Assembly (NCBI GenBank): GCA_049694315.1
Contig: JBAVQU010000021.1
Coordinates: 20,372-84,371, forward strand
Length of the DNA: 64,000 nucleotides
From: Candidatus Zixiibacteriota bacterium
Lineage (GTDB): Bacteria; Zixibacteria; MSB-5A5; SM1-73
Reading direction: 5' to 3'
Position 1 is the stretch's first letter; every line of letters begins with the position of its first letter. Below are positions 3,464 to 59,206 of this stretch, one piece after another. The notes beneath the pieces were generated by a model. That model was not told the DNA's origin and ran no database searches. It saw only the letters and a list, made by a program, of their open reading frames with translations. Made by a program: the position numbers and the translations under genes.

Positions 3464-4683
3464 GCTTCTCCCCCTCCGGCAGAAAGATTCACGACGGTGG
3501 TCACTCCCAGAACAAACATGATGAGCATATTCACTTCCGCATCGGTATAGTAACACTGGAATAGGCTGGCGAAAAGAAAGCCAACGATGGCACTGGCGCC
3601 ACCCATCTGCACCGCGTATCGGAAACCATTCTTTTTTTTCTTGGCCATCGCCTTGATGGTGGAATAGAGGAAAATAATCCACATACTCATATAGGCCAGC
3701 AGCCCCAGAAACCCGGAGTTGACCGTTACGTTCAGGAAATCATTATGCGGATGACAGGTGGTATCATAGTATCCCTCTACTTTGTAACGGTCAAACAGCC
3801 GGCTAAAATTGCCCAGCCCGATCCCCCAGATGGGTTTGTCCTTTATCATGTTTATTGAAGTCAACCATAATCTTATTCTGGTGGACTCCACTTTATCTTT
3901 GGATAAGCTGATTTCCTTAATCCTGTCCCAGCTGGTGGGTTCAATTAGGTAGATCGCCACAAAGAGCAATAACATACCCAAGGTCAGAAGAATGACGAAC
4001 TTCTTGCCCCTCAGAAAACCAAAAGTCAAAACCCCCATTGCCGCTCCAAACCAGGCGCTGCGGGCATAGCAGAAAACCAGTGACAGCCCTATCACTATGG
4101 GTGCAAGGAAATCCATGATTCCGTGAAAACCGTATCTTCTGTTGGCCAGAGCCATCGCGGACGTCATCAGAAAAGCAAGCATGTAATACCCGCCGAACGT
4201 GAGATGATGATCAAAGAATCCCAGACTGATGTATACCTGTCCTCGTGCCTCAAGCTGGCTATGGCGATACAGGTCCATTCCCGAATAATGCTGCCATATG
4301 GCGTAGAATCCCACCAGAACGGAGACGGAGATCAGAATGGTCAGAAGTTTCTTGACTTGGGCTTCCTCTTTGACATGATTGACGATCAGGAAGAAAATCA
4401 GCAGCAACCATTCCTCTTTTAAGGCCAAAAGACTCTGAATCTTGTAAGGGGAGAATATGACTGCGATCGCCTGAGTCCCCACATAGAGGAGAATCGGCAG
4501 GTTCAAAGGTGTGTAGATAAACTTTAGGCTTCTGGACAAAACAGATTTCGTCAACCAAGCCAGAAGCGCCAGATTGACCATGGTCTGCGCCCCGGCTATC
4601 GACCAAGGGGAAAAGGCCGCGAAACCACACAGGGAAAACCAGATTATCTTGTCCGCCGTCTTTATCGCATTTTCTCTGGTCAT
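3460..4683 (-). CDS. O-antigen ligase (WaaL/RfaL) family membrane protein
   Basis: This 407-aa polytopic membrane protein has about 10 hydrophobic segments and a large loop. It lies inside an LPS cluster between glycosyltransferases. Confidence 0.65.
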   Translation of the reverse strand: MTRENAIKTADKIIWFSLCGFAAFSPWSIAGAQTMVNLALLAWLTKSVLSRSLKFIYTPLNLPILLYVGTQAIAVIFSPYKIQSLLALKEEWLLLIFFLIVNHVKEEAQVKKLLTILISVSVLVGFYAIWQHYSGMDLYRHSQLEARGQVYISLGFFDHHLTFGGYYMLAFLMTSAMALANRRYGFHGIMDFLAPIVIGLSLVFCYARSAWFGAAMGVLTFGFLRGKKFVILLTLGMLLLFVAIYLIEPTSWDRIKEISLSKDKVESTRIRLWLTSINMIKDKPIWGIGLGNFSRLFDRYKVEGYYDTTCHPHNDFLNVTVNSGFLGLLAYMSMWIIFLYSTIKAMAKKKKNGFRYAVQMGGASAIVGFLFASLFQCYYTDAEVNMLIMFVLGVTTVVNLSAGGGEA

Positions 4684-7600: not shown

Positions 7601-8821
7601 TTACTTATTCAATTTCTTTTGCACCCGGTCAATGTTACCCCGCACGAATTGGATCTCCGGTTGGGCACTGTTCGTTTCGAAGATGAGAAGGGCGCGTTTG
7701 TAGTATTGCATGGCTTGAGAGAAATCCCCGTTCTGTTCCAATACCGAGCCGATGTTGGTCAGATCGCCGGCCTGGCCCATCATATCCCCGCTGGTGCTGT
7801 CAATAACCAAAGCCTGACGATTATACTCCAAAGCCTTCTCTATGTTCCCCCTTTCCTGGTAGATCAGACCGATGTTGCCTAAAACGCTCGCCTCGCTCTT
7901 TCTGTCACCGGCTTTCCGGAACAGCAGCAGTGATTGCTCAAAAAGAAGGACGGCACTGTCCAGCTTGCCGCCTGCCTTATAGGTTAACGCTAAATTATTC
8001 AACTGCGCCGCTTGAGTAAACAGGTCCGTCTCTGGTTCCTGGATCTCAAGTGATCTTTTGTGATAGACTTCAGCGCTATCCGTGTTTCCCTTCATCTGAT
8101 ATATAAACCCTATGTTAGCTAGCGCATTCTTTTCACCGGAGCTGTCGCCCATGCGTTTGAAAACTCCAAGCAGGTTAAAGTAATTCTCTATGGCTCCATT
8201 CAAGTCATCGGCCAACTTTGAAGCCAAACCCAGATTGGAGTAAATCACCGCCAGGGCCGAATCATCGCCCGTCTCCTTGCCGACCCGTTCCGCCTGATAA
8301 TAGTAATTGATGGCCGGGCCGTATTCTTTCAGAAATGCTTCCGAGTTGCCCATCAGAACGAAGAAATCGAGCCTTTCCTTGTCAGAGAGATTCAAGTCCA
8401 AGGCCTGTCGGAAAACCTCCAAAGCCCGGGAATGCTCCCCTTTCATTTTATATTCCAGACCCTGCCTGAAGAAAAGCTGAACCTGCGGTTTGTCCGTTTT
8501 GTTCAACTCACCAATGTAATCTTGAAGTTCGGATAGAAACCTGCTCACCCGATTTGATTGGACTGCGGATGGCTGCTCGGCTGGAATCGTTTGTTCACTT
8601 CGCCTCTGCTGCCCCTTCCGTGCCATTAGTCTGATGTCCACCAGGGCTAAGACCAGAACGATAAGAAACAGGATCAATCCTTCCCTGACTGCAAAACCTT
8701 TGGATTTTTTTTGCCTGAGGTCAAGGTAAATCTTTGCGATGGAAAAGACCAAAATCAAGATTAGCGATACTAAGATGACGGTGGACCACATACCTCTCTC
8801 CTTCCTGACTGGAAAACTCAT
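7601..8821 (-). CDS. TPR-repeat protein with N-terminal membrane anchors
   Basis: Has two N-terminal hydrophobic helices followed by multiple 34-aa TPR-like repeats (A..Y.NLG..Y...G....A...Y..AL). Confidence 0.6.
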   Translation of the reverse strand: MSFPVRKERGMWSTVILVSLILILVFSIAKIYLDLRQKKSKGFAVREGLILFLIVLVLALVDIRLMARKGQQRRSEQTIPAEQPSAVQSNRVSRFLSELQDYIGELNKTDKPQVQLFFRQGLEYKMKGEHSRALEVFRQALDLNLSDKERLDFFVLMGNSEAFLKEYGPAINYYYQAERVGKETGDDSALAVIYSNLGLASKLADDLNGAIENYFNLLGVFKRMGDSSGEKNALANIGFIYQMKGNTDSAEVYHKRSLEIQEPETDLFTQAAQLNNLALTYKAGGKLDSAVLLFEQSLLLFRKAGDRKSEASVLGNIGLIYQERGNIEKALEYNRQALVIDSTSGDMMGQAGDLTNIGSVLEQNGDFSQAMQYYKRALLIFETNSAQPEIQFVRGNIDRVQKKLNK

Positions 8822-8868: not shown

Positions 8869-10334
8869 CTAAAAGTCGAAATAATCGTGATAATCAAATG
8901 AAAAATCTTCCGGAAGATATTCGCCTAATCTGGCGTCAAGTGTATACTTTCCGCGATAATCTCCCTTCGAAATCCTCTCCACAGCTTCGATCAACCAGTC
9001 TGCGTCCTGGCGGGTATTGTAAAAACCGAAACTTACCCGAACGGCGCCGGGAAGATTAGCTTTGTATGATCTTTTGATCTCCTCCTTAAGCTGCCTGGTT
9101 TGTTCCTCTGTTATGCCCAAGAGGCTTTTGATGTAAGGGTGAGCGCAAAAACACCCATGCCGCACCCCAATGCCTGCCTCGTAGCTCAATACGCTGGACA
9201 CCAAGGCGTGATGGACTCCAGTCAAGTTGAAAGGGATCACCCCCAGGCGATCCCCCTCCAACAGATCACTTCCATAGATAGCCGTGCCTTTGATTGATTC
9301 GAGGCTCTCAATGGTATACCGGGTCAATTCCTTCTCATGTTGGGCGATGAGGTCCATCCCGATTCCCTTTAAGGTCTCTATCGACTGGGCCAGGGCCACT
9401 GCCCCAACCACGTTTGGAGAGCCGACCTCTTCTTTGTTGGGCAAACCGGTCCACTGGACTTCATCTCTGGTAACCAACTCTACCGTCCCTCCTCCCACAT
9501 GCTCCGGGTCCCCCTGCAGGAAAACCGACTTCGGTCCGATGAGGACTCCTGTGCCAAACGGCGCATACAGCTTGTGGGCCGAGAAAACCAGAAAATCGAT
9601 GTGCTCCGGATCGTCGTCGGGTCTGACATCGACCGAGCGGTGAGCAACCAATTGAGCTGCATCCACAACTATTTTTGCGCCGCACCGATGGGCCAACCCG
9701 GCTACACGATGAATTGGTGTCACGTAGCCGGTGACGTTGGACGCAGCGGTGATGGCCACCAGTTGAATCCTTCCGTTGCCGTTCCTCAGCTTGGCTTCGA
9801 TGTCCTCCAGACTCAGCCCCCCCTCTTGTCCACCTCGGCATAAATCACCTTAGCCCTTCTTCTCCAGGGGAGATCGTTGGAATGATGCTCCATGCCTGTG
9901 GATAGCACCACCGATCCCTCTTCGAGAGGAAAACGATAGGCCAGCTTGTTCAGGGCCTCAGAAGTATTCTTGGTAAAAATGACCGCATTCGACGAGAGGT
10001 CCGCCCCCACAAAGTTCCCTGCCACCTCATGTGCCGAATCATACACCCAGGACGACAGCATGGATTTGAAACCGGACCCCCGGTGGACGCTGGAGTACCA
10101 TTCCATGAATTGGCTGACCTTCTCCAGTACCGGCAAAAGCGACGGGGTGCTGGCGGCGTTGTCCAGATTCACGTACCTCCGTAGAGACCCATCCATAAGG
10201 GGCACTTGTCTATCCACGCCCACGATCAGATTCCGAAGGCGACTGAAACGAACGTCGAGATCCTCTGCCGTTGCCTTAACAACGCCCATACTCGTTTCTC
10301 TCCCGCCTCCCGGCACGTTGGGGTTTCGGGCCAT
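8869..10334 (-). pseudogene. Class V aminotransferase of the cysteine desulfurase/selenocysteine lyase family (SufS/CsdA-like). It is split by a -1 frameshift in a C7/G7 homopolymer at 9817-9823.
   Basis: The N-terminal ORF contains YVNLDNAASTP. The C-terminal ORF contains ITAASNVTGYV, the PLP-lysine motif FSAHKLYAPFGTGVL and the active-site Cys motif RHGCFCAHPY. Adding one G to the run fuses them as ...EVDKRGGLSLEDIEAKLRNGNGRIQLVAITAASNVTG. Confidence 0.65.
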
Positions 10335-20430: not shown

Positions 20431-20739
20431 TCAGCGGCGGTGCGCCAGCGTCGTCCGCTGCAACGATTTGTTAGGCTTTCTCGCCTTTGTTCTCTGCTTT
20501 TTGGGCAGCAGTGGAATTAAACAACGCAAAGCCCGATTCACAGATTCCGAGTCTGGGAAATACGCTCGAATATCCGGTTCCAGGACAACTGCACCTTTTT
20601 TTGGCATCACGTCCTTAACAACAGTTGTACCATCCACCTTATGAATAGCGATGGTATACCCGGCTTGCATGGCTTTGTGGTGCTTGCCACGCACTCCACC
20701 CCTAAAATTATATTCCGTACGCATATCGTTGTCCTCCAC
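20431..20739 (-). CDS. brnA: BrnA-family antitoxin
   Basis: Has the C-terminal BrnA motif VLEPDIRAYFPDSESVNRALRCLI. It lies immediately downstream of a BrnT-like toxin gene. Confidence 0.55.
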   Translation of the reverse strand: MEDNDMRTEYNFRGGVRGKHHKAMQAGYTIAIHKVDGTTVVKDVMPKKGAVVLEPDIRAYFPDSESVNRALRCLIPLLPKKQRTKARKPNKSLQRTTLAHRR

Positions 20740-20749
20740 CTATACTATT

Positions 20750-21037
20750 TTAGTCACTGCCTTCTTCATAAAGTTTCCGCTCCGATGACGTTGCCTTACG
20801 ACTACTGATAATACGTATGTTGGAGCCTCGTTCGGTATAAACCACTACCAGTATGTGACCCTTATCAGAACTGCCAATGTCAATATACCGCTGCTCCTCC
20901 ACTGAATGGCCTGGATCAGGCATCGTAATTGAAAAGGGATCAACGAAAACCGTTGTGGCTTCATCAAAACTGACTTGGTGCTTTTTGAGATTCGCTTTGG
21001 CTTTTTCTTCATCCCACTCAAAGCTCAGTTTCATCAT
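20750..21037 (-). CDS. brnT: BrnT-family (DUF497) ribonuclease toxin
   Basis: Reads MKLSFEWDEEKAKANLKKHQVSFDEATTVFVDP...ILVVVYTERGSNIRIISSRKAT, which matches the BrnT signature. Confidence 0.65.
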   Translation of the reverse strand: MMKLSFEWDEEKAKANLKKHQVSFDEATTVFVDPFSITMPDPGHSVEEQRYIDIGSSDKGHILVVVYTERGSNIRIISSRKATSSERKLYEEGSD

Positions 21038-21288
21038 GGCTCCTTTGAACCCTAGCGTGTCGTTTAAGCATAACCGGCCGCGGTTCACCCGCCGCGCGGG
21101 TGCGGGATAGAGCTTCTGCTACGAGACCAACTACAAGCGCGTGTAGCCGCCGATTCGCGCGCGCCATAGCGCAGTCGGGTGCAAGCGCTGGTTAGGTGGC
21201 CCGCTTGGGCTTTACGTATGCCCGCCAGGTCCCCTTGACCTGGTGGGGAGCTCCTATCAGGTCGGGGACCTCAAGAGGTACTATTTTC

Positions 21289-25470: not shown

Positions 25471-27033
25471 TCATCCGGAGTCGAATTCCCGCAAGCTTAA
25501 AAAATAGAAATACCTGGTTTCATTTTCCGATATCCTAATAAGGAAAACCTCAACCTTGTACCCGGCACTTGACAGCGGCTCCTTGACCTCCCATTGCCAT
25601 GTGGGTTTGCTGCGCTCCTCATAGATTTTGGGCTGTCCTATGATGTAAGTAGGCCTTCGAGATGCAAGGAACTCATCTGTCACCAATTCAGTATGGCCTG
25701 GTTTCGATACTTCCCTATATGTGAAATCCTTTTGAGAGTCAGACGCCAGAGCCAAACCGAGTTCATCGATAGCATAAAGCTCCGAGTAATAAGGTATTGC
25801 CCCAGCAGCGGTGGTGGATAAGCTTTCACTCGGTTTGGCAATGCTTTTGAACATGAGTCCCGCCTTTGACCAGACGCGGACGTAATCTCTTAACAATCCT
25901 ATACTGTCCATTCCTGTCCGACTCCACATTTTGTTGCTTCCTTGGGATGGGTAAGCCAGGAAGAATGCGCACAATCCTATCAGCAGAATCTCTGAAGTGA
26001 ATAAAGCGGTTTTATGTCCTGTTTTTGAAAGAGGGTGTAGATAATGATGCATTCCTCTGAATCCCTCCTGAACCAGAAAGAAAAACAAAGGCAGAATGGG
26101 CACTAAGAACCTGAACATGTCCATGAAGTCCCCTCCAACATACACTACATAAAGAGAGAAGATCAATATCATGGAGGCAAAGTAGGAAATGACTGTTTTC
26201 AATCTATGGTTCAATCTAACAGCTTCGCCTAGAAACACCAGCGGGATCATCAAAACCGGTATCCAAAACCTCTTGAGGAAATCAAAAAGATAGGAAAGAC
26301 CTTGGCGATAAAGCATCTCTCCTCCCATCTTCACATAAAATGTATTAGGCAGAAGTCTTCCATAATAGGACCACCGCCAAAAGAAGTAGACAAGAAATGG
26401 GACCAGAAAGGAAATGGTCCAGATCAACACGTTTCTCGGTCTGATCTTCTTGCTGACGGCGGAAACATAGAGCAGGCAGACGAAGGTTGTTCCGGCGAAG
26501 AGCAGTCCATCCAAACGAGTCATGCAGATCAGACTGAAGGTTATTCCGGAGAAAGCGAGGCGTTTTGGTTCGGTCATCCCCGAAAGAAAAAAGAACGAGC
26601 CTAAGAGAATCAGAAAGGTATAAAGTGACGTCTCCAAGCCTCCAGTTGACCAGGCGGCGTAAGCTCCACAACAGGCTAGCAGAAGCGGAGCCAAATAGTT
26701 GAAAAGACTTTCTCTCGGGTAAAGCCATCTGTTCAGTCGTAACAACAGCAAAACTGTGCCTAGGCTAAACAGTGCCCCCAAAACCTGTGAAACCACAACT
26801 ACGTCCAATCCCATTTTCATGAATAGGCTTACAAGCAAAGTCCATAGGAAATTGGTATACCCCTCCACCCTTTCGCCAATATTGTAGACCAGACCATGTC
26901 CCTCCACAAAATTCTTGGCATATCGAAAGGAGATGAAAGCATCGTCACAGACGAACCTGAGATAATCGATGTGTAAGAGGAGTATAAGAAATATGACGAC
27001 GGTCAGGCCTATCGAAATACAAGCTTTCTTCAT
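25471..27033 (-). CDS. Polytopic membrane protein, a putative GT-C-fold glycosyltransferase (ArnT/PMT-like)
   Basis: The 520-aa protein has at least 10 TM helices. Its N-terminal cytoplasmic-face motif DDAFISFRYAKNF.EGHGLVYN..ERVEGYTNFLW resembles lipid-linked sugar transferases. Confidence 0.5.
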   Translation of the reverse strand: MKKACISIGLTVVIFLILLLHIDYLRFVCDDAFISFRYAKNFVEGHGLVYNIGERVEGYTNFLWTLLVSLFMKMGLDVVVVSQVLGALFSLGTVLLLLRLNRWLYPRESLFNYLAPLLLACCGAYAAWSTGGLETSLYTFLILLGSFFFLSGMTEPKRLAFSGITFSLICMTRLDGLLFAGTTFVCLLYVSAVSKKIRPRNVLIWTISFLVPFLVYFFWRWSYYGRLLPNTFYVKMGGEMLYRQGLSYLFDFLKRFWIPVLMIPLVFLGEAVRLNHRLKTVISYFASMILIFSLYVVYVGGDFMDMFRFLVPILPLFFFLVQEGFRGMHHYLHPLSKTGHKTALFTSEILLIGLCAFFLAYPSQGSNKMWSRTGMDSIGLLRDYVRVWSKAGLMFKSIAKPSESLSTTAAGAIPYYSELYAIDELGLALASDSQKDFTYREVSKPGHTELVTDEFLASRRPTYIIGQPKIYEERSKPTWQWEVKEPLSSAGYKVEVFLIRISENETRYFYFLSLREFDSG

Positions 27034-27131: not shown

Positions 27132-27413
27132 TTAATCTAACCTAGTATACAATATCCACACTTCTTTTTTCGCTCCCCGATCAAAATAAATTTCGAAGAC
27201 TTCCTCCTCTACGGTCAATACTCGATAGTAATTTCTATGTTTTCTCTGCCACCATCTTTTTCTTTTGGCACCCGAGCCAGAATAGCTGTAATCCGGCCAG
27301 AAGGCAATCACCTCCTTAATCTTATATTCTTTGCCTCTCCAGATGAAGGAGACGGGGTTTCTGGTCTGCTCGTCTCGTGTGACCTCTATTTGATCGGAAT
27401 AGAATTCAGGCAT
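27132..27413 (-). CDS. Hypothetical protein of 93 aa
   Basis: The ORF has no recognisable motifs (WRGKEYKIKEVIAFWPDYSYSGSGAKRKRWWQRKHRNYYRV). It lies between the GT-C gene and der. Confidence 0.35.
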   Translation of the reverse strand: MPEFYSDQIEVTRDEQTRNPVSFIWRGKEYKIKEVIAFWPDYSYSGSGAKRKRWWQRKHRNYYRVLTVEEEVFEIYFDRGAKKEVWILYTRLD

Positions 27414-28772: not shown

Positions 28773-28921
28773 GACCTCAACTGATCTTTGAGAGGGTTAT
28801 CTTTACCTTCTGCCCTTTAATGCATGGCTGATCTATATTAAGACGTCAGTCGTTGAAAAGCAACAAAAAAACCGCCAAACCAGTTTCCTGATTCGGCGGT
28901 TCAAACTAAACGAAGTCATCA

Positions 28922-31900
28922 CTATGGGCAGTGGCAACATGGAGGTGGTCCACCTTTGAACAGATAGTTAACGAGGTAGACCACATCGCCAGCATCGACA
29001 ACTCCATTACAAGTGACATCACCCATCCATAAGGGATTCGGAGCAGGACCGCCCTTAAAGAGATAGTTTATCAGGTATACTATATCTCCAGCATCGACGA
29101 TCCCGTTCCCAGTGCAATCACCACTAAGAGCAACCAGCGCACCAATCAAGCCACAGTGGGCTGAGTTAAGAGGTTCACAAGGTGAACCGTGCTGAATATA
29201 ATAGTCACCAGATATAGTTGGCGCACTGTTGCATGATATTGGGTGACAGAACAGGGGATCTGCGGAGATGCTTAATGATTCTTCTGGACAACCGGGACTA
29301 ATGAAAACACACAACTCCCCAAAACCAGAAGCATCCACGTCAGAACAACAGTTACTTGGAATGCTACCATCACAATACCACTCATTTCCATCTACCGAAC
29401 TCGTCGCGCAGTTACCCCAAACTATCGATCTCGTCAAATATGGGTTGCTAGTGTCTAATTGAGAGATTCCGCCACCTCGATTGGCCTTGTTCCCACTAAT
29501 CGTGCAACTGACAATCGTCGGTGAAGAGTTGTTACTGCAGTATATCCCACCACCATCGCCACCATAAGCTTTATTACCGGTGATTACACATTGAATAATC
29601 GTTGGAGAAGCATTGTTATAGCATGCTATTCCACCTCCGTCTGTCGCTCCATTTCCAAGAATCTTGCAGTTTTTAATTGTAGGCGAGGTATCCACACATA
29701 GGATACCGCCACCACGCTGATTCTGGTCAGTCCTCCCATTTATGATAGTGACACCCTCCACAAGTGACCCGGAGCCTTCCTGTGAGTGAAAGAAAAAACC
29801 ACGGTGCGGGATATCAATGTCAACATTAAACGTGTTACGCGAGCAATCTAAAGTACATGCATCAGCCCCGTGCTGCGAACGCACGATAATAGGCTTCGCT
29901 TGGAAAGTAATATCTCTGTTACCATCGCCCCAGAAAGTCCCATCCATAAGCAGAACAGTGTCACAATTACTGGCGGAATCAATCGCGGCTTGAATCGTGG
30001 GGACGTCTCCTGTATGGTCTGGCTTAACGACCCATTTTCGACATACAACTATCGTATCGTAATCATAATAGAAAGGACCCTGTTCAGAAAGCGCTGCTCT
30101 AACAGTAAAGGGGAAAACTCCTGTTTTGGTTGGTGTTCCTGAGATTATGCCAGTGGTATTCTCTAAAGATAACCCATCAGGTAGCTGACCTTCCACGACC
30201 CCGAGTGATGCATTACTAGAACATACGAACACTACGGTGTCCTGATATTGGTAACCGATAACCCCATTTGTTAATGGATTATGGACAAAATGGCACTCGG
30301 TAACCTCGCCCAGAAGCCAATCCAGGCAGATATCTGCTCTGAGAGGAGGTGACGTAAGTGAAGTTTCAAGAACGAAATTTTGATCTCTCTGGTCGTTAAA
30401 AACAGTGAGAGTTTCCTTTGCTACCCCATCGTCCAAGATAATGTCAATAGGCATATGGTAGACTTCAGGAACATAAGGATCTATTGAAGGAGTTTGAGTC
30501 TGTTTAAGATTAAGGAAGATCTTACCGTCGTCTCTGACAAAGAACCAGGACTCGTACACCGGATGATAGTCACTATATATCCATTCATGGAAAAAAGTAT
30601 TAAGACGTGTGTCACCCGTTACGTTAACACACACGTCTCGGAATTGTTCAGTGCTTGCATGGTTCCATTTGTAAGTACTCAAGTATTCGTGCAGAATATT
30701 ATAAAAAACTTGATTGCCTACCCAGTGCCTTAACATGTGAAGCACCCAAGATCCCTTATTGTAAACTCTATGGAGAATTTCCTCGGTAACATTTCCAACA
30801 TATCCATTCTCCAGGTATACTGATCCATGTCCCAAGTAGCGATACCGGTCGATATACCGGAACATTGCATTCAAACCATATTTTTTTCAACCCATATACA
30901 CTCTGAATATCTTGCAAAACCCTCATTGATCCAGAAATGGTTCCATGTGGAACAGGTTACACAATTACCCCACCATGAGTGAGATAGTTCATGGCTCAGT
31001 GGAGTTTGACCATACTGAGTATCGCAAATTGCAGTAATAGTCGGATACTCCATTGCTCCGAGTCTTATTGGAACCTGCATCATCCCGTATTTCTCCATTA
31101 CATATGGTGGGTAGATGCCTGAGTAAGGGTAGGCACCGAAACAGGTTTCGAAAGTATCCAACATTTCCACGACCTTAGGAAAGGAATCCCTTGCGGTAGC
31201 AACATTCTCAGGATAAACATAGAACCATATAGGCATAGTACCGTTTCCACTCTGCAAAATATAAGAAGTATCTAGTCTGACATAATTGGTACAGCCAATA
31301 CCCACTTGGTAGGTCGCAATCGGATAATGCTCTCTCCAATAGCTTGTTTCTCTTCCTCCACTGACGAACTCCATATTGAGTGTTCCGTTTGAAGCACATC
31401 TAAAGTTGTCAGGATAGGTCACCGTCATATAGATAGAGTCTGCTTTGTCCTCCACGCGGTCCTTACATGGCCACCAACGTCGGGCATAAACAGGTTCTGA
31501 CATGTTATAACAGATATCAGTCCTTGCATGAGCACCAAAAATGAATCCAAGCTGAGTCAAAGCGTAACCCGGTTTTCCATGGTAATAGACCGTGACTCTG
31601 AATGTGTCGTTATAATTGTATGTTTGGGGTTGGAAACTGATATCTACAAATGAATCCACTTGGGTACCCGTTGGATTAGCTATCCCCACGACTTTTACTG
31701 AATCGACGTGCATGTAATGGAAGGGATCATAGTCATATCTGTACAAGTCTAGCCTAATAAATGACAGTCCGTTTATTAGGCTTCGTCCTTCTAAATAAAC
31801 CGATCCGTCAATTGCTGAGTTATCAAAGTCCAAATTAAGATTGATTCGATAGAAAAGAGCGTCCCAGTCATCTTGGGAGCTATGATGGTCGCTCAAAACG

Positions 31901-31983
31901 GTGTCTGACGCATTCGCGACATAAGCTGGGAAGATTGAGCCTGCAAATAGCATTAGGCTTGTAATTAAGACCACAGATTTCAT
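28922..31983 (-). pseudogene. Secreted multidomain protein of about 1000 aa with an M1 metallopeptidase domain, parallel beta-helix repeats and C-terminal dockerin-like repeats. It is interrupted by a -1 frameshift in a T7/A7 homopolymer at 30881-30887.
   Basis: Has a signal peptide (MKSVVLITSLMLFAGSIFPAYVANA), a GAMEY motif and HELSHSWWGN-x18-E (the M1 HEXXH-E). After the frame break come Y..KG (VYNKGSW), tandem G-rich beta-helix repeats (GNGATDGGGIACYNNASPTI...) and two dockerin-like repeats (CTGNGIVDAGDIVYLINYLFKGG / CNGVVDAGDVVYLVNYLFKGG). Adding one A fuses the two ORFs as ...WVEKKYGLNAMFRY. Confidence 0.6.
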
Positions 31984-32641
31984 GACAACCTCCCTGTGTG
32001 GTTTGAGACCTGTTCAAGAATTTGATTCTGTATGTGTATTCTAAGTTCATTCCCCGTCATCCGCAAAGCAACCCCTGTTATTGCAAGACCCTAAAAGAGC
32101 ACTTATCCGATTCCGAGTTAACTCATACACCCCCTTGTTCCATAACACGTTATATATGCCCATAAGCAACTCTTCTTTCTGTAGAATTTGACTCCTCGAG
32201 TGATCACTGCTAGGGACAACCCCAATGACTACCCTAAAAAAAACAAATACACATTTCTTAACCGTCGGATATACCTATTGCATCATCTAGAAAGCAATAC
32301 AAATGATGCTCTAATTAGGAAGCAAAGATCCGATCCTTAGATGCTAATCGCAAATCGTTCCATATTTTTGATTCTGCTCTAATATAATGCTCTTGAGCGA
32401 TTTGTCAAGAGGTTTGTCCCGATTTTTCTTAACTATTTTAGGAAAGTGTTGGAGAGACGGCAATAGGCTGAACCCGCTCAAACAAACTCTTTGCTTTGCA
32501 AGGAGTTAACAGGGGGGCACAAACGCTTATATAAACTAATGACGGGTGAGGTTAGCTTCTGGGAAGTCTTCTTCAGGTCTTTCTAAGTTCATCTTAAGAT
32601 AGCATTCGAACGGAGAATGGTATGATCCAGCCTATCTCTTT

Positions 32642-33949
32642 CTAATGTTCTGATTTCCGCATGTCAAATATTTTCCTTAAACTCCCTACCAGATCATACG
32701 ACCCCACTATCACTTGCCGATCCAATTCCCTTTCCAAATCGGCAGGCTCTAGATCATCTAAGAACAGTCCATCTTCATTCAGGCAGTTGGGCGGAAGAAG
32801 GATCACTTGGCCTAAGTTCTTCCTTTTGTTTAGAGCATTCACAATATCCACGCCGGTCAATAGTCCGGTCACGGTCACACTGTGTCCAAAGAAGTTATTT
32901 TTCACGACCACCGGTCGAATCTTAAAACCAGATATTGAATTTAATTTTTCTTCGACGATCTGTTTGATCAGCCTAAAGGCTGATACTCCTGTCACCATGG
33001 TGATGGTTAGGCTTTTCTTTAGCTTATCCGGCAAGAGTTTTTGTTTTGACTCAAACTGGTCGATGAATTGCTTTGCCATTCCCACCCCGTTTTCGATCTG
33101 ATGAAATTCATCATAATATTCCGTCTCGGGAAAGTCAACTCCTCCTTTCGCGAAGAACTCGTCTGCTGCGTAAACAAAACCGCAGTTCCACCTTTCCCTG
33201 AAGGATTTTTGCCACTTCTCGACGAGCCGAATTACTCTCCTTGAATACGTCTTGTCTATCGGTCGTATCTTGGGCAGCTTCTCCCTGAATTTCGTCAAGC
33301 CCACCGGCACCAGTGCCAATGATTTCACAAAAGGATAATAGGCCGATAGTTCCCTCACCGACCTTTCCAGTTGCGGACCATCGTTGATTCCCGGACACAA
33401 TACGATCTGAGTATGCATCTCTATCCGCCCTTCGGCCAATCTTCTTATCAGGGGCATGATTTCGGGAATTCTGTCATTGGACACCATCTTCTTACGCAAC
33501 TCTTCATCCGTAACGTGAACCGATATGTACAGCGGGCTAAGTCGCTGTCTTATAATACGATCGACGTCACCATCTGAAGTATTGGTTAACGTCACGAAAT
33601 TACCGTGCAGGAAGGATAGGCGGAAATCCTCGTCCTTAAAGTAAAGGGCTTTCCTCAAGCCCTTGGGAAGCTGGTGAACGAAACAAAAGATGCAGTTGTT
33701 GGCACACCTTCTGTATCTGGTCTCGCAGAACTCAAGCCCCAAATCCTCATCCGGCTGCTTTCTCACGGAGACCAGCACGATTCTGTCATTCTTGGTCATG
33801 AGTTTCAGTTTCAAGCGGTGATCTGATGAAAAGAACTTATAATCGATCACGTCGTTGACCGGATGGCCGTTGATCTCCAGAATCGCATCACCCACCGAGA
33901 TGTCATAACGGGAGGCAACGCTATCATTGGCTATTGATTTGATCTTCAT
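32642..33949 (-). CDS. PDZ-domain radical SAM protein (DUF512-type)
   Basis: Has an N-terminal PDZ-like region (ISVGDAILEINGHPVNDVIDY) and a radical SAM cluster motif CANNCIFC (CxxxCxxC). Confidence 0.65.
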   Translation of the reverse strand: MKIKSIANDSVASRYDISVGDAILEINGHPVNDVIDYKFFSSDHRLKLKLMTKNDRIVLVSVRKQPDEDLGLEFCETRYRRCANNCIFCFVHQLPKGLRKALYFKDEDFRLSFLHGNFVTLTNTSDGDVDRIIRQRLSPLYISVHVTDEELRKKMVSNDRIPEIMPLIRRLAEGRIEMHTQIVLCPGINDGPQLERSVRELSAYYPFVKSLALVPVGLTKFREKLPKIRPIDKTYSRRVIRLVEKWQKSFRERWNCGFVYAADEFFAKGGVDFPETEYYDEFHQIENGVGMAKQFIDQFESKQKLLPDKLKKSLTITMVTGVSAFRLIKQIVEEKLNSISGFKIRPVVVKNNFFGHSVTVTGLLTGVDIVNALNKRKNLGQVILLPPNCLNEDGLFLDDLEPADLERELDRQVIVGSYDLVGSLRKIFDMRKSEH

Positions 33950-33979
33950 CCGGAGTGAAAAGGTGTTTGGAGAAGAATA

Positions 33980-34537
33980 TTATCTTCCAGTCGTATCAAG
34001 TCGATATTGAGCTATAAACATCCGCAGATACTGAACGCCACAGTTCACCACCGAGAGAGTCGCCAGGATCAGCAGCCACTGTTGGAGAAAGTGAATCCGA
34101 AAGATATAGACGATCACCGTAATCGCCCAAATCCACGAATTCGACTTCCCCCAAATGTTCGACACCGGAAGAGTCCGCTTTTTTCTGACCAGGGCAGCAC
34201 CCGCGGCCAAAGTCAATATGTCCTTCAAGAAAAGCAGGAAAGCCGCCCAAAGAGGAAACCCGCGATAGACTAGGACAAAGATCACCGATATCCCCAGACC
34301 CAGCTTGTCTGCCAGCGGGTCCAGAAGCTTTCCCAGATCGGTGACCTGATTTAGCCTTCTGGCCAAGTAACCATCCAGAACGTCGGAGCCTACCGCCAGT
34401 ATTATCAAGATAATGGCGGCGATCAAACCTGACTGCGTGCCTTGCGCCAAAAAGAAAAAGATGAACGGCAGAAGCAAAATCCGGAAGATCGCCAAAAGAT
34501 TGGGAAGAAGGAAGAAATCTCTTTTAGTTATGATCAT
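33980..34537 (-). CDS. pgsA: CDP-diacylglycerol--glycerol-3-phosphate 3-phosphatidyltransferase, of the CDP-alcohol phosphatidyltransferase family
   Basis: Carries DVLDGYLARRLNQVTDLGKLLDPLADKL, the D-G-x2-A-R...G-x3-D-x3-D motif. The start is taken at MIITKRDFFLLPNLL. Confidence 0.75.
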   Translation of the reverse strand: MIITKRDFFLLPNLLAIFRILLLPFIFFFLAQGTQSGLIAAIILIILAVGSDVLDGYLARRLNQVTDLGKLLDPLADKLGLGISVIFVLVYRGFPLWAAFLLFLKDILTLAAGAALVRKKRTLPVSNIWGKSNSWIWAITVIVYIFRIHFLQQWLLILATLSVVNCGVQYLRMFIAQYRLDTTGR

Positions 34538-34618
34538 GTTGTCGTCGCTGACGATCCTATTTCCTGAGGTCCAAAGGAAGCTTGGTTGCGGTCGAGCTAA
34601 TATCAAAGCACTGTCGGT

Positions 34619-36343
34619 TCAATTAGCGCGTGAGTCATTGGGGCTGGCGGTTCGGATCATCTCTTTTGCCTGCCTCAGGGTTACCTGGCTCACTTTCTCT
34701 CCGGAGATCATCCGGGCTATCTCGTTGATCCTCTCTTCTCTTTCCAATCTCTTTATTCTGGTTACGGTTCGGCCCTTCAGGCTTTCCTTGAATACCTTGT
34801 AATGGTGGTCTGCCTGCGAGGCAATCTGTTGGAGATGGGTTATCACCATCACCTGCCGTGAGGAAGCTAGATCCTTCAGGCTTTTGCCGACGGCGGAAGC
34901 CACCTCGCCACCAATGCCCACGTCGATCTCGTCGAAAATAAGAGTCTGTATCCGATCCGATTTGGCCAGGATGGATTTCAACGCCAGCATCACCCGGGAG
35001 ATCTCCCCTCCGGAAGCAATTTTGGCTAAGGGCTTGAGTTCCTCCCCGGGGTTGGGAGAGACAAAAAACTCCACTTGATCCATCCCCTTCTCGGACACGG
35101 CGAATCTCTTGCCATCCAGTTCTACCAGCCCATTTTGATCTTCCTGCTGAGCGATTCTTATTTCGACCTTGGTCTGGTCCATCCCCAAACCGGCCAACGC
35201 CTTCTGAATTCTTCCGGAAAGCTCGGAGGCCTTGGCTTTCCTCCTTTGGGAAAGATGACTGCACGCCTTCTGAAGTATCTTGGAGCATTGGTTTATTTCG
35301 TTCGTTAAGCTTTTTAGGATTTCGTCCCTATTCTCCATTCGCAGCATTTCATTCTCAATCTGAGCTTTGTAACTTGAGATTTCTTCCAAGCTCTTCCCAT
35401 ACTTCCTTTTCAACGTATTAAGTAGATTCAGCCTCTCCCTTATCGTCTCCAGCCTTTCCGGATCGAATTCCAGCCGACTCCGGTAATCCTCCATGAATCT
35501 GGACATTTCCTGAAGCTTGATCACGCACGATTCCAAGGTCTCATCCGGTTCCTTCAAGCGCGAATCTATCCCCTCTCCCCTCTTCATCTCCCTGGAAAGC
35601 AAGGTCAGCTTCCGCAAAAGCGAGTCCTCGCTCTCATAGAGCTGGTGATAAAGGTTGCCGGACAGCTCAAAAAGACTCTCCACATTTTCCAGCACTTTTC
35701 TTTCCCCTACCAGCTTTTCTTCCTCGTCCGGGCTTAGTTGTGCTTTCTCGATTTCCTGTATCTGGAATTCGTAAAGCCTCCTTCTCTCTTCGTCCAGCTT
35801 GGTGCTGTGTTCCAGATCGTCCAGCTCCTTTTGCTTCTCTTTTAGAAGACGATAGGTTTCGCTCACCTCAGACAGGATTCCGTCCAGATCGCCATAATGA
35901 TCCAGATATTCAACGTGTCGCTCCACGTTCAGCAGCGACTGATGCTCGTGTTGTCCGTGCAGATCTGCCAATCTGTCTCCGATGGACTTGAGGCTGGCCT
36001 GCGTGATCAGCCGGTCGTTCACATAGCATCTGCTTTGTGCCTTGCTCGAGATTTCCCGGCGTATTATCAGCATATTCTCCTGAGGGACGATCCCCAGACC
36101 ACGCAGCAGGCTTTCCAGACTTCGATCGTCCGTCAGTTCGAAGACTGCCTCTATGCTGGCTGAGTCGAACCCGGTTCTGACCGCCTCACTGCTGGCCCTC
36201 TCCCCCAGGATCAAATTCACCGCACCAACGATAATGGACTTTCCTGCACCCGTGGCGCCGGTGATAACGTTGAGTCCGGGTCCGAACTCCACCTCCAGGT
36301 CCTCAACCAAGGCATAGTTTCTGATTCGAAGATTCTTCAGCAT
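34619..36343 (-). CDS. recN: DNA repair protein RecN
   Basis: Reads MLKNLRIRNYALVEDLEVEFGPGLNVITGATGAGKSI (Walker A), then a long coiled coil, then a C-terminal SMC-like motif. Confidence 0.9.
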   Translation of the reverse strand: MLKNLRIRNYALVEDLEVEFGPGLNVITGATGAGKSIIVGAVNLILGERASSEAVRTGFDSASIEAVFELTDDRSLESLLRGLGIVPQENMLIIRREISSKAQSRCYVNDRLITQASLKSIGDRLADLHGQHEHQSLLNVERHVEYLDHYGDLDGILSEVSETYRLLKEKQKELDDLEHSTKLDEERRRLYEFQIQEIEKAQLSPDEEEKLVGERKVLENVESLFELSGNLYHQLYESEDSLLRKLTLLSREMKRGEGIDSRLKEPDETLESCVIKLQEMSRFMEDYRSRLEFDPERLETIRERLNLLNTLKRKYGKSLEEISSYKAQIENEMLRMENRDEILKSLTNEINQCSKILQKACSHLSQRRKAKASELSGRIQKALAGLGMDQTKVEIRIAQQEDQNGLVELDGKRFAVSEKGMDQVEFFVSPNPGEELKPLAKIASGGEISRVMLALKSILAKSDRIQTLIFDEIDVGIGGEVASAVGKSLKDLASSRQVMVITHLQQIASQADHHYKVFKESLKGRTVTRIKRLEREERINEIARMISGEKVSQVTLRQAKEMIRTASPNDSRAN

Positions 36344-36436
36344 GGCACGAGTGCGGTACCTTACACTACGAAGGTCTGGACAATGTGCAGTAGCAGAAAC
36401 GGAAGTTCCTATGAGCTTTTGATCCCGGACCCAAAC

Positions 36437-59080: not shown

Positions 59081-59206
59081 ATCGTTTCTCCTTTTGGCAA
59101 CTAATCTTGAAGATACCGATTTTGGGTGGAAGAAACAAGGATGAATCTGTCGAGCGGAAGCTCTTTGAAAAGAAGCGAAACCTCCAGTCAATTCCGGGGA
59201 TTACTT

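Follow-up and report, generated by a model that had tools for sequence, protein, structure and literature searches.

A probable one-base homopolymer contraction divides the gene for a predicted dockerin-bearing M1 aminopeptidase of Zixibacteria

Two open reading frames (ORFs) on the minus strand of a 64,000-nucleotide stretch of a Candidatus Zixiibacteriota genome (the window) adjoin at a run of seven T residues (T7, positions 30881-30887; A7 on the coding strand). They raise the question of whether this locus holds two genes or one and, if one, what its interruption means. The upstream frame (30871-31983) encodes 370 amino acids and is listed at NCBI as MGB8657242.1, 'M1 family aminopeptidase'. 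The downstream frame (28922-30874) encodes 650 amino acids and is listed as MGB8657241.1, which is counted from an ATG as 647 amino acids and named 'right-handed parallel beta-helix repeat-containing protein'. Insertion of a single A on the coding strand joins them into one ORF of 1020 codons plus a stop codon (28922-31983). The junction of this repaired ORF reads ...WVEKKYGLNAMFRY and lies within the sequence ...ECIWVEKKYGLNAMFRY..., and its product ends in GGPPPCCHCP. A sequence-only reading of the DNA had proposed one gene interrupted by a frameshift of one base in a homopolymer, which is borne out by an M1 profile match spanning the junction and by the existence of intact relatives. Its description of the product as 'giant' is overstated for 1020 residues.

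The upstream fragment carries a signal peptide, M1 domain I, the GAMEY motif and the HExxH-x18-E zinc site. The downstream fragment holds the remainder of the catalytic domain with Tyr408, followed by a beta-sandwich, an Ig domain, a beta-helix and a dockerin, and it has no signal peptide. In the repaired protein, the zinc motif HELSH-x18-E (residues 331-354; 30922-30993) supplies H331, E332, H335 and E354, and the exopeptidase motif GAMEY, a variant of GAMEN (residues 309-313; 31045-31059), supplies E312. All of these residues are invariant among the 118 aligned family members. The Glu of the GxMEN motif binds the N terminus of the substrate (PMC10343166). The final Asn position of this motif is occupied by Tyr in the window protein and by His in the wider family. 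The catalytic Tyr408 (30761-30763) belongs to a YNKG motif encoded downstream of the frameshift, and 116 of the 118 family members have Tyr at this position. GAMEY, HELSH-x18-E and YNKG are thus all present as previously described.

Matches to M1 peptidases continue through the break. The Peptidase_M1 profile aligns in a single stretch over residues 296-468, across the junction at residues 367/368, with a score of 87 bits (gathering cut-off 27.7). Alignment to the M1 peptidase 6a8z in the PDB is likewise unbroken there (E 1e-26), and Foldseek matches to IRAP, ERAP1 and ERAP2 extend over about 570 columns that encompass domains I-III (E ~1e-34). AF2 models the catalytic domain with pLDDT above 90 and puts the junction between its helices at 351-369 and 371-380. 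The zinc motif, the exopeptidase Glu, the Tyr, the profile score and the fold are all those of family M1, and the repaired protein is predicted on these grounds to be an M1-family zinc aminopeptidase.

Three relatives with 65-67% identity to the window protein are intact. They read EKKYGL through the junction, encoded by GAAAAGAAATAT, with the homopolymer absent, and the repair to about 1020 amino acids proposed earlier (...EKKYGL...) gives the same sequence. The proteins P0001 (1031 amino acids) and P0003 (1028 amino acids) cover 100% of the window protein, and in each of the DNA sequences L001, L002 and L009 a single ORF runs through the junction, which reads GAAAAGAAATAT. L009 was the one further intact relative found in a scan of JGI metagenomes, which returned none nearer than 66%. 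A scan of GTDB species genomes yielded only three distant Acidobacteriota M1 genes with 24-27% identity. Because the intact relatives read EKKYGL without a homopolymer, the window locus represents one gene minus one base and not a conserved frameshift. They carry AAAAGAAA at this site, which makes it probable that the A run arose through a synonymous AAG>AAA change. Further decay is absent: family-conserved positions are retained in both halves of the gene, with 126 of 172 kept in the window protein versus 125 and 128 in intact relatives.

The repaired protein begins with a Sec-type signal peptide (MKSVVLITSLMLFAGSIFPAYVANA, followed by SD; residues 1-25, 31909-31983) whose predicted cleavage site lies between ANA and SD. 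Read by eye, the signal conforms to the A-x-A rule and has no lipobox Cys, and relatives have equivalent N termini. The N-terminal beta domain of M1 peptidases (domain I, residues 40-256; 31216-31866) is indicated by Pfam, AF2 and Foldseek together. Peptidase_M1_N scores slightly under its gathering cut-off (23.6 versus 25.8 bits, residues 45-225), AF2 pLDDT is mostly above 90 and Foldseek matches the domain to IRAP/ERAP. Next are the thermolysin-like catalytic domain (domain II, residues 258-470; 30575-31212), which contains the frameshift, and a beta-sandwich resembling M1 domain III that is seen by AF2 and Foldseek (residues 476-553; 30326-30559). No helical domain IV follows the beta-sandwich, and ERAP1_C was unmatched in the Pfam search. 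In its place is an Ig-like He_PIG domain (residues 558-632; 30089-30313), for which the Pfam match covers residues 593-635 with 36.2 bits (gathering cut-off 24) and AF2 pLDDT is 80-90.

Residues 650-950 (29135-30037) form a right-handed parallel beta-helix module, capped at its C terminus by a Cys-rich segment. Beta_helix (PF13229) matches residues 736-860 with 42.3 bits (gathering cut-off 25.9), and the NCBIfam model para_beta_helix scores 19.4 against 19.45. This module has more than 1700 stand-alone homologues. Its first AF2 model has pLDDT mostly above 90 over residues ~650-880 and lower values in the cap. Two AF2 models were used jointly, since one built on a mixed alignment (A1) rendered the beta-helix and dockerin well and the M1 part poorly, and one built on a family-only alignment (A2) gave a good M1 part without a good beta-helix or dockerin. 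Foldseek matches the beta-helix to the lyase Pel9A (1ru4, E 4.9e-4) and also to PL6 lyases, with 9-18% identity to these enzymes. Neither Pfam nor NCBIfam searches found Por_Secre_tail or TIGR04183, the mark of T9SS cargo, at E <= 0.1. The overall layout is best explained as an M1 peptidase in which an Ig-like He_PIG domain, a pectate-lyase-like beta-helix and a type-I dockerin replace the usual domain IV.

The sequence-only reading had assigned the protein an M1, beta-helix and dockerin architecture behind a signal peptide, and this holds, with Pfam scores over the cut-offs and the signal peptide recognized by eye. Its assignment of the C-terminal repeats as dockerin-like is sustained by a match to Dockerin_1 (PF00404) of 31.6 bits against a cut-off of 22.9, which covers residues 955-1008 and profile positions 2-56 of 57. 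The type-I dockerin (28955-29122), which is also evident from its repeat pattern and AF2, consists of two 22-residue repeats (residues 956-977 and 989-1010) that each contain a DxTxNGxxDxxD Ca loop and then a helix. These repeats are identical at 16 of 22 positions. AF2 helices at 965-976, 985-988 and 998-1010 have pLDDT above 90. Both Ca loops have D, N, D and D at positions 1, 5, 9 and 12. Position 3 is Thr in both window repeats and Asn in 95-97 of 118 family members. Family dockerins have a conserved Cys pair, with one member in loop 2 (C992 in the window protein) and the other at the C terminus. C1019, in the C-terminal tail GGPPPCCHCP (28925-28954), aligns with a Cys found in 116 of 118 members. 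This conserved pair would mark a new dockerin subtype. A search with the dockerin alone returned only fragments of 50-130 amino acids, and such searches seem to prefer matches of query length. The cohesin-mediated anchoring suggested earlier stays conjectural, with no match to cohesin (PF00963) among the approximately 50 window genes scanned.

Putative signals flank the two ORFs together. A strong intrinsic terminator-like hairpin with a 15-bp stem and a T-run (28869-28902, minus strand) lies 20 nucleotides 3' of the stop codon. A promoter-like site, TTGACA-16-TATATT (32381-32408, minus strand), lies about 400 nucleotides upstream of the ATG and is a candidate by consensus match (11 of 12 positions). 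A scan inside the gene found only weak hairpins (5-6 bp), and its coding strand gave no promoter-like match. The peptidase locus is best explained as one transcription unit. It lies among housekeeping genes (der, a DUF512 radical-SAM gene, a pgsA-like gene and recN). They differ from the genes beside the relative in L001, and a conserved operon was rejected on these grounds.

On balance, and with modest confidence, we favour the view that this locus is a gene for an exported modular M1 peptidase, transcribed as one unit, in which an A8 run has lost one base. This change, carried by the dominant genotype of the sample, would most likely be real: either a recent mutation that inactivates the gene or a reversible switch between on and off states. 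In its uninterrupted form, the protein would be exported via its Sec signal. Its zinc site (H331, H335 and E354), with the general base E332, E312 and Tyr408, would trim extracytoplasmic peptides from the N terminus. The beta-helix would probably bind glycan or surface matrix. The Ca-binding dockerin might provide a tether, with a cohesin-type protein from elsewhere in the genome as the presumed partner; a proposed assembly of dockerin peptidases in Cloacimonadota is a precedent (PMC8542988). As sequenced, the locus would produce an exported 370-residue stub that is missing half of the catalytic domain, and any product of the C-terminal part would stay unexported. Several points weigh against this account. 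In a diderm cell, a Sec signal alone cannot carry a protein past the outer membrane, the window genes scanned yielded no cohesin, Thr occupies position 3 of the Ca loops, and a second lesion of the same type is present elsewhere in the window.

This second lesion divides a class-V aminotransferase gene related to cysteine desulfurases (8869-10334) at a run of seven C residues (9817-9823). Relative to a contig with 94.6% identity, G8 has become G7, and the gene is otherwise undecayed. Two lesions of the same type are by themselves also the expected output of a homopolymer-prone sequencing platform. It is possible, though we doubt it, that the peptidase gene is intact in the organism and that T7 and the C7 run are read-level under-calls of homopolymers that any assembler given the same reads would repeat. 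Both disrupted genes in the window show an 8-to-7 contraction without other decay, and one of them encodes a housekeeping-type enzyme, points that speak for this alternative. A simple assembler slip at T7 was rejected because an independent Logan assembly of run SRR28002918 (contig L003) is identical across the run, reproducing T7 with 100% identity over 6375 bp. A shared sample is the probable source of the Logan contigs and the metagenome-assembled genome (MAG), and the two assemblies may rest on one set of reads, so that a platform error could still be common to both. However, the coding regions of the window contain three intact 8-mers, which indicates that there is no systematic shortening of 8-mers. 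Seven coding-region 7-mers are also in frame, and runs of six break no gene. Moreover, accurate short reads are the most typical source of a k-mer assembly whose 6-kb contigs match the MAG exactly, and with such reads consensus errors at 7-8-mers are rare. The two contractions may be real mutations or read-level errors.

We consider it very unlikely that the frameshift is rescued, either by a -1 ribosomal slip on A_AAA_AAU or by transcriptional slippage on A7, to give some full-length enzyme in a possibly regulatory manner. The zero frame at A7 does form a canonical X_XXY_YYZ slippery heptamer, the shift needed is -1, and A-runs are known slippage sites. However, none of the three intact relatives contains the run (AAAAGAAA stands there instead), and the 101-nucleotide stretch from the A-run onward folds no better than shuffled sequences (z = 0.07). 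A7 is also short for transcriptional slippage, known cases of which require longer runs, and a lesion of the same type occurs in an unrelated gene. Programmed frameshifting was rejected as the main reading since downstream structure is absent and the site is not conserved. Programmed recoding does not account for the A7 lesion.

The two NCBI entries and the existence of stand-alone beta-helix and dockerin proteins such as P0122 might imply that each ORF works as a gene of its own, one for a short M1 aminopeptidase and the other for a beta-helix/dockerin protein. This is scarcely credible, because the upstream fragment stops between two catalytic-domain helices only 13 residues past the third zinc ligand, the downstream ORF begins within the catalytic domain and retains Tyr408, the beta-sandwich and the Ig domain behind no signal peptide, and all relatives are single continuous ORFs. 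The earlier rule that reads confirming T7 would establish two genes is consequently mistaken. With zinc ligands and Tyr408 on different fragments, a break in mid-domain and a downstream product that cannot be exported by its own signal, a confirmed T7 would mean a disrupted gene.

A single disrupted gene has practical consequences. MGB8657242.1 and MGB8657241.1 belong in one entry that is marked as a frameshifted M1 peptidase, and the same treatment is warranted for the split aminotransferase. Two 8-to-7 contractions within 64 kb bear on how the pseudogene content of this MAG is read, and the locus is a useful test case for assembly quality. The sequence-only reading had held that dockerins are not standard on M1 peptidases, which fails for this lineage. 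The combination of M1, Ig and dockerin domains is found in more than 100 protein clusters, and Zixibacteria is the sole phylum named wherever the source gives an organism, as it does for eight matches. Nearly all of the best 120 homologues have M1 and He_PIG domains, and most also have Dockerin_1. Insertion of a beta-helix is rare, being found in about four loci (the window protein and three relatives). We conclude that the window protein is an ordinary modular exported peptidase and a rare variant of a family that is annotated in databases and unstudied.

The presence of dockerins on an entire family of M1 aminopeptidases in Zixibacteria is of modest interest. Among the papers listed by full-text searches for this phylum together with dockerin, cohesin, cellulosome or scaffoldin, none mentions Zixibacteria. 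Should a cohesin partner exist, cohesin-dockerin assembly would be extended beyond polysaccharide degradation to the scavenging of protein, in an uncultured phylum of sediments. A more elaborate proposal, which we regard as improbable, is that Zixibacteria operate a non-cellulosomal dockerin display with phylum-wide M1 cargo, a surface 'proteolysome'. Its dockerins would be of a distinct subtype stapled by a disulfide between Ca loop 2 and the C-terminal Cys, a glycan-binding or lyase-like beta-helix would direct the enzymes of the rare variant to polysaccharide matrices, and homopolymer tracts, the A7/A8 run being one, would act as on/off switches for single enzymes within the population.

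The closest relatives, P0001 and L009 from JGI/ENA metagenomes and P0003 from Logan, share 65-67% identity over 100% of the length and the same domain order. They are intact proteins of 1028-1031 amino acids with EKKYGL at a junction devoid of the homopolymer. They differ in gene neighbourhood and in having the canonical Asn/Asp at dockerin loop position 3, where the window copy has Thr. More distant are zixibacterial M1, He_PIG and Dockerin_1 proteins of about 740 amino acids, for example, P0036 ('M1 family aminopeptidase') and P0031 ('dockerin type I domain-containing protein'). These are 35-41% identical to the window protein in the shared M1 domains I-III, Ig domain and dockerin, and they have the same catalytic residues, the same dockerin subtype with a conserved end Cys and, where named, the same phylum. 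Unlike them, the window protein and its three relatives have an extra beta-helix of about 300 amino acids between the Ig domain and the dockerin and dispense with an N-terminal extension of about 60 amino acids. These four proteins also have GAMEY and HELSHSWWGN in place of GAMEH and HELxHQWWGD in the wider family, and their C terminus is CCxCP(E), where the family has a single Cys.

M1 peptidases of known structure (M1dr of Deinococcus radiodurans, 6a8z/6iff, 474 amino acids; IRAP; ERAP1/2; PSA; LTA4H) have the zinc motif, Glu and Tyr in common with the window protein, with 16-19% identity in structural alignments. No solved M1 peptidase includes the Ig, beta-helix or dockerin modules, and the window protein is without the helical domain IV, which M1dr is likewise not known to have. 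The beta-helix module resembles stand-alone proteins from Zixibacteria, Cloacimonetes, Eisenbacteria and Planctomycetota, with up to 52-53% identity over 95% of its length. In P0122 (433 amino acids, Beta_helix and Dockerin_1), a dockerin ends the module as in the window protein, and the peptidase is absent. Many other stand-alone homologues have Por_Secre_tail (PF18962) or FlgD_ig (PF13860) at the position of the dockerin, which is a different C-terminal sorting or anchor module.

Clostridial type-I dockerins, such as that of C. thermocellum (8x39), have the same duplicated 22-residue Ca loop and helix, and the window dockerin exceeds the PF00404 threshold. Its predicted three-helix fold superimposes on 8x39 with a TM score of 0.44 and an rmsd of 3.1 A over 71 columns. 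It differs from the clostridial examples in its non-cellulosomal host, its peptidase cargo, the conserved Cys pair and the Thr at loop position 3. Dockerin-bearing peptidases have been described in another candidate phylum outside of Clostridia. Candidatus Stygibacter (Cloacimonadota) has a proposed cellulosome-like system in which peptidases of families S8/S53 and C25 carry a signal peptide and a C-terminal dockerin (PMC8542988). Its peptidases are not M1 enzymes, and a 3755-residue cohesin scaffoldin has been identified for them (PMC8542988).

The interval from 28922 to 31983 on the minus strand is one gene. It is read as two minus-strand ORFs that lie in different frames and overlap by 4 nt, an upstream ORF of 370 codons with an ATG start (30871-31983) and a downstream ORF of 650 codons (28922-30874). 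NCBI places this locus on a 126,571-bp contig from a Candidatus Zixiibacteriota MAG and annotates it as two proteins, an 'M1 family aminopeptidase' of 370 aa (MGB8657242.1) and a 'right-handed parallel beta-helix repeat-containing protein' of 647 aa (MGB8657241.1). The junction of the ORFs is a T7 run (30881-30887), read on the coding strand as A7 in the context ...GGGTTGAAAAAAATATGGTTTGAATGC... Adding one A yields a single 1020-codon ORF that contains ...ECIWVEKKYGLNAMFRY... and ends in ...GGPPPCCHCP. The coordinates, one-base repair and motifs of a sequence-only reading all prove correct in the ORFs and the repaired translation.

Several lines of evidence join the two halves. The Peptidase_M1 match runs unbroken over the junction at aa 367/368 (aa 296-468, 87 bits versus a Pfam cut-off of 27.7), and 6a8z, a 474-aa M1 peptidase and the closest solved structure by sequence, aligns without a break over aa 119-448. 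Three intact relatives, P0001 (1031 aa, locus L001), P0003 (1028 aa, locus L002) and an ORF in the JGI metagenome locus L009, are 65-67% identical to the repaired protein over its full length. All three carry W-I-E-K-K-Y-G-L at the junction, the same residues that the sequence-only reading had restored. These relatives and the Peptidase_M1 match thus bear out its proposal of a single frameshift-split gene. At the DNA level, the relatives have GAAAAGAAATATGG where the window has GAAAAAAATATGG; the window is one base shorter, and the homopolymer is not conserved. Sequence scans place a strong terminator-like hairpin with a 15-bp stem and a T-run (28902-28869) 20 nt past the stop codon and one promoter-like site about 400 nt upstream of the ATG. 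Within the gene, the terminator scan gives weak 5-6-bp matches only and the coding-strand promoter scan gives no promoter-like site.

Once repaired, the protein has the fold and all the catalytic residues of an M1 zinc peptidase but no domain IV, and it continues with Ig, beta-helix and dockerin modules. With Pfam gathering thresholds as cut-offs, matches are found to He_PIG (aa 593-635, 36.2 bits, cut-off 24), Beta_helix (aa 736-860, 42.3 bits, cut-off 25.9) and Dockerin_1 (aa 955-1008, 31.6 bits, cut-off 22.9), and Peptidase_M1_N (aa 45-225, 23.6 bits) falls slightly under its cut-off of 25.8. Peptidase_M1, Beta_helix and Dockerin_1, the three modules predicted before any database search, are all above threshold, and the C-terminal repeats match a dockerin model. 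Two complementary AlphaFold runs were used, one from a family-only alignment of 118 members (A2) and one from an alignment that includes beta-helix homologues (A1). In A2, pLDDT is mostly >90 for M1 domain I (aa 40-256) and the catalytic domain (aa 258-470), about 80-90 for a beta-sandwich (aa 476-553) and the Ig domain (aa 558-632), and >90 for the dockerin (aa 955-1015). Foldseek matches to IRAP, ERAP1, ERAP2 and PSA (E ~1e-34, ~570 columns) correspond to M1 domains I-III; helical domain IV is absent from the repaired protein, which has no ERAP1_C match. In A1, the beta-helix reaches pLDDT mostly >90 over approximately aa 650-880, with lower values through its Cys-rich cap, and matches the Pel9A pectate lyase (1ru4, E 4.9e-4), PL6 alginate lyases, RbmB lyase and phage tailspikes. 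H331, E332, H335, E354 and E312 are invariant in all 118 aligned members of A2 and Y408 is kept in 116; in place of GAMEN, the repaired protein has GAMEY and the wider family GAMEH (motif roles as given in PMC10343166). Read by eye, the N-terminal sequence MKSVVLITSLMLFAGSIFPAYVANA/SD looks like a Sec signal peptide without a lipobox Cys.

In the AlphaFold A2 model, the break separates helix 351-369 of the catalytic domain from helix 371-380. The N fragment keeps the three zinc ligands but loses Tyr408, the remaining helical subdomain and every accessory module to the C fragment, and the latter carries no signal peptide. Because the catalytic domain is divided in this way, confirmation of T7 would show that the gene is broken, not that there are two separate genes, as the sequence-only reading had expected.

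This one-base homopolymer contraction disrupting the M1 gene is non-programmed. We lean towards a real mutation of recent origin that is fixed or dominant in the sampled population and may be reversible. The repaired protein keeps 126 of 172 positions that are conserved in at least 90% of the family, versus 125 and 128 in intact relatives, and retention is similar in its two halves, with no further decay. In an independent Logan assembly of SRR28002918, a 6375-bp contig (L003) matches window positions 30007-36381 at 100% identity, T7 included. An assembler or polishing slip is therefore ruled out; a bias in the reads would carry over into any assembly made from them. A homopolymer error in the reads themselves is a plausible though less likely explanation. 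In-frame runs inside window genes include seven other 7-mers and three 8-mers, the latter being T8 runs at 3632-3639, 8705-8712 and 58347-58354, so not every 8-mer in the assembly has been shortened, a point relevant to whether the two frameshifts in the window are artefacts. Rescue at the level of expression is improbable: A_AAA_AAU does occur in the zero frame at the run, where a -1 shift is required, but the 101-nt stretch from the A-run onward folds no better than shuffled sequence (z = 0.07) and the A-run is missing from every relative. That the two ORFs are separate functional genes is scarcely credible.

Among the 57 homopolymers of at least 6 bases in the window, two would join two long ORFs if one base longer, the T7 run and a C7 run at 9817-9823 (G7 on the coding strand). 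This C7 run divides a minus-strand class-V aminotransferase or cysteine desulfurase-like gene (8869-10334, as 9813-10334 plus 8869-9759) into fragments of 173 and 296 aa, which are separate proteins in NCBI (MGB8657221.1 and MGB8657220.1). One added G gives a 488-aa product with a single Aminotran_5 match over profile positions 1-370 of 371 (272 bits). In a JGI contig (L008, 94.6% identical) the run is G8 and the 488-aa gene is intact; its product is 96% identical, gap-free, to this reconstruction. The G7 allele is reproduced in the Logan assembly (contig L004).

Among the 120 best homologues of the repaired protein, nearly all have Peptidase_M1 and He_PIG, and most have Dockerin_1. These homologues are about 740 aa long. 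The eight with a source-named organism are all from Zixibacteria, under names such as 'aminopeptidase N', 'M1 family aminopeptidase' and 'dockerin type I domain-containing protein'. Family identity to the repaired protein is 35-41%. The sequence-only reading considered dockerins non-standard in M1 peptidases, but in Zixibacteria the architecture is not very unusual. A beta-helix between the Ig domain and the dockerin is rare, being found only in the window, P0001/L009 and P0003. As a stand-alone protein of 350-550 aa, the beta-helix module is common (>1700 matches), with source-named organisms in Cloacimonetes, Eisenbacteria, Planctomycetota and Zixibacteria and C-terminal ends of the dockerin, Por_Secre_tail or FlgD_ig type. 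The closest of these, P0122, has 433 aa, 52% identity and Beta_helix plus Dockerin_1. The searches favour matches near query length, and a 315-aa beta-helix query missed the 1020-1031-aa relatives; domain-level queries therefore under-report multidomain homologues. The simplest history is that an M1-Ig peptidase became fused to a cassette of beta-helix and dockerin. With its beta-helix, the window gene is a rare variant in an M1-Ig-dockerin family that extends across Zixibacteria and has database annotations but is unstudied.

The intact peptidase would be exported through Sec and would trim N-terminal residues from extracytoplasmic peptides. Its active site, missing domain IV, is probably more open, like that of the two-domain Deinococcus enzyme. 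The beta-helix would bind glycan or matrix, and the dockerin would provide a calcium-dependent tether to a cohesin-type partner encoded elsewhere. A diderm envelope, across whose outer membrane a Sec signal alone does not carry a protein, is implied by LPS genes in the window; Pfam and NCBIfam find no T9SS C-terminal domain in the repaired protein. The window also encodes a second peptide-trimming enzyme, a full-length S46 dipeptidyl-peptidase (56906-59191, minus strand; Peptidase_S46, 767 bits), in keeping with a protein-scavenging lifestyle. Other minus-strand features are a pair at 20431-21088, in which a BrnT-type toxin (PF04365, 101 bits) is followed by a 102-aa ORF without a Pfam match that is probably its antitoxin, and a 520-aa multi-pass membrane protein (25471-27033; no Pfam match at E <= 1e-5) that adjoins a DUF6504 gene (27132-27413).

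The dockerin consists of two 22-residue repeats, DCTGNGIVDAGDIVYLINYLFK and DVTCNGVVDAGDVVYLVNYLFK (28955-29119), with canonical calcium-loop positions 1, 5, 9 and 12. Position 3 is Thr in both repeats, whereas the intact relatives have Asn or Asp there and 95-97 of 118 members of the family have Asn; the Thr may weaken calcium binding. In 116 of 118 members, a Cys at the C-terminus or a few residues from it aligns with C1019, and a loop-2 Cys is equally frequent, in 116 of 118 (position 4 in 87, position 6 in 29). This conserved pair in Zixibacterial M1-family dockerins (28925-29020, minus strand, aa 989-1020; alignment A2) suggests, from its pattern of conservation, a disulfide-stapled subtype. 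In the three beta-helix variants the C-terminus is CCxCP(E). Many short ORFs (P0249-P0368, 50-130 aa) contain little besides the same dockerin type, their source-named organisms all being Zixibacteria. Some lie on long contigs (P0316, 607 kb; P0251, 130 kb). These short ORFs may represent either dockerins that stand alone or the detached ends of other genes split by frameshifts.

No cohesin (PF00963) is found in the approximately 50 window genes scanned, which are housekeeping, LPS, cytochrome c maturation and translation genes plus the S46 peptidase. A full-text literature search for Zixibacteria with dockerin, cohesin, cellulosome or scaffoldin returned no paper mentioning Zixibacteria. In structure, the dockerin part of the A1 model resembles a C. 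thermocellum dockerin (8x39_B; Foldseek TM 0.44, rmsd 3.1 A, 71 columns). A precedent for dockerin-bearing peptidases comes from Cloacimonadota, where S8/S53 and C25 peptidases with dockerins and a 3755-aa cohesin scaffoldin are proposed to form a cellulosome-like complex (PMC8542988).
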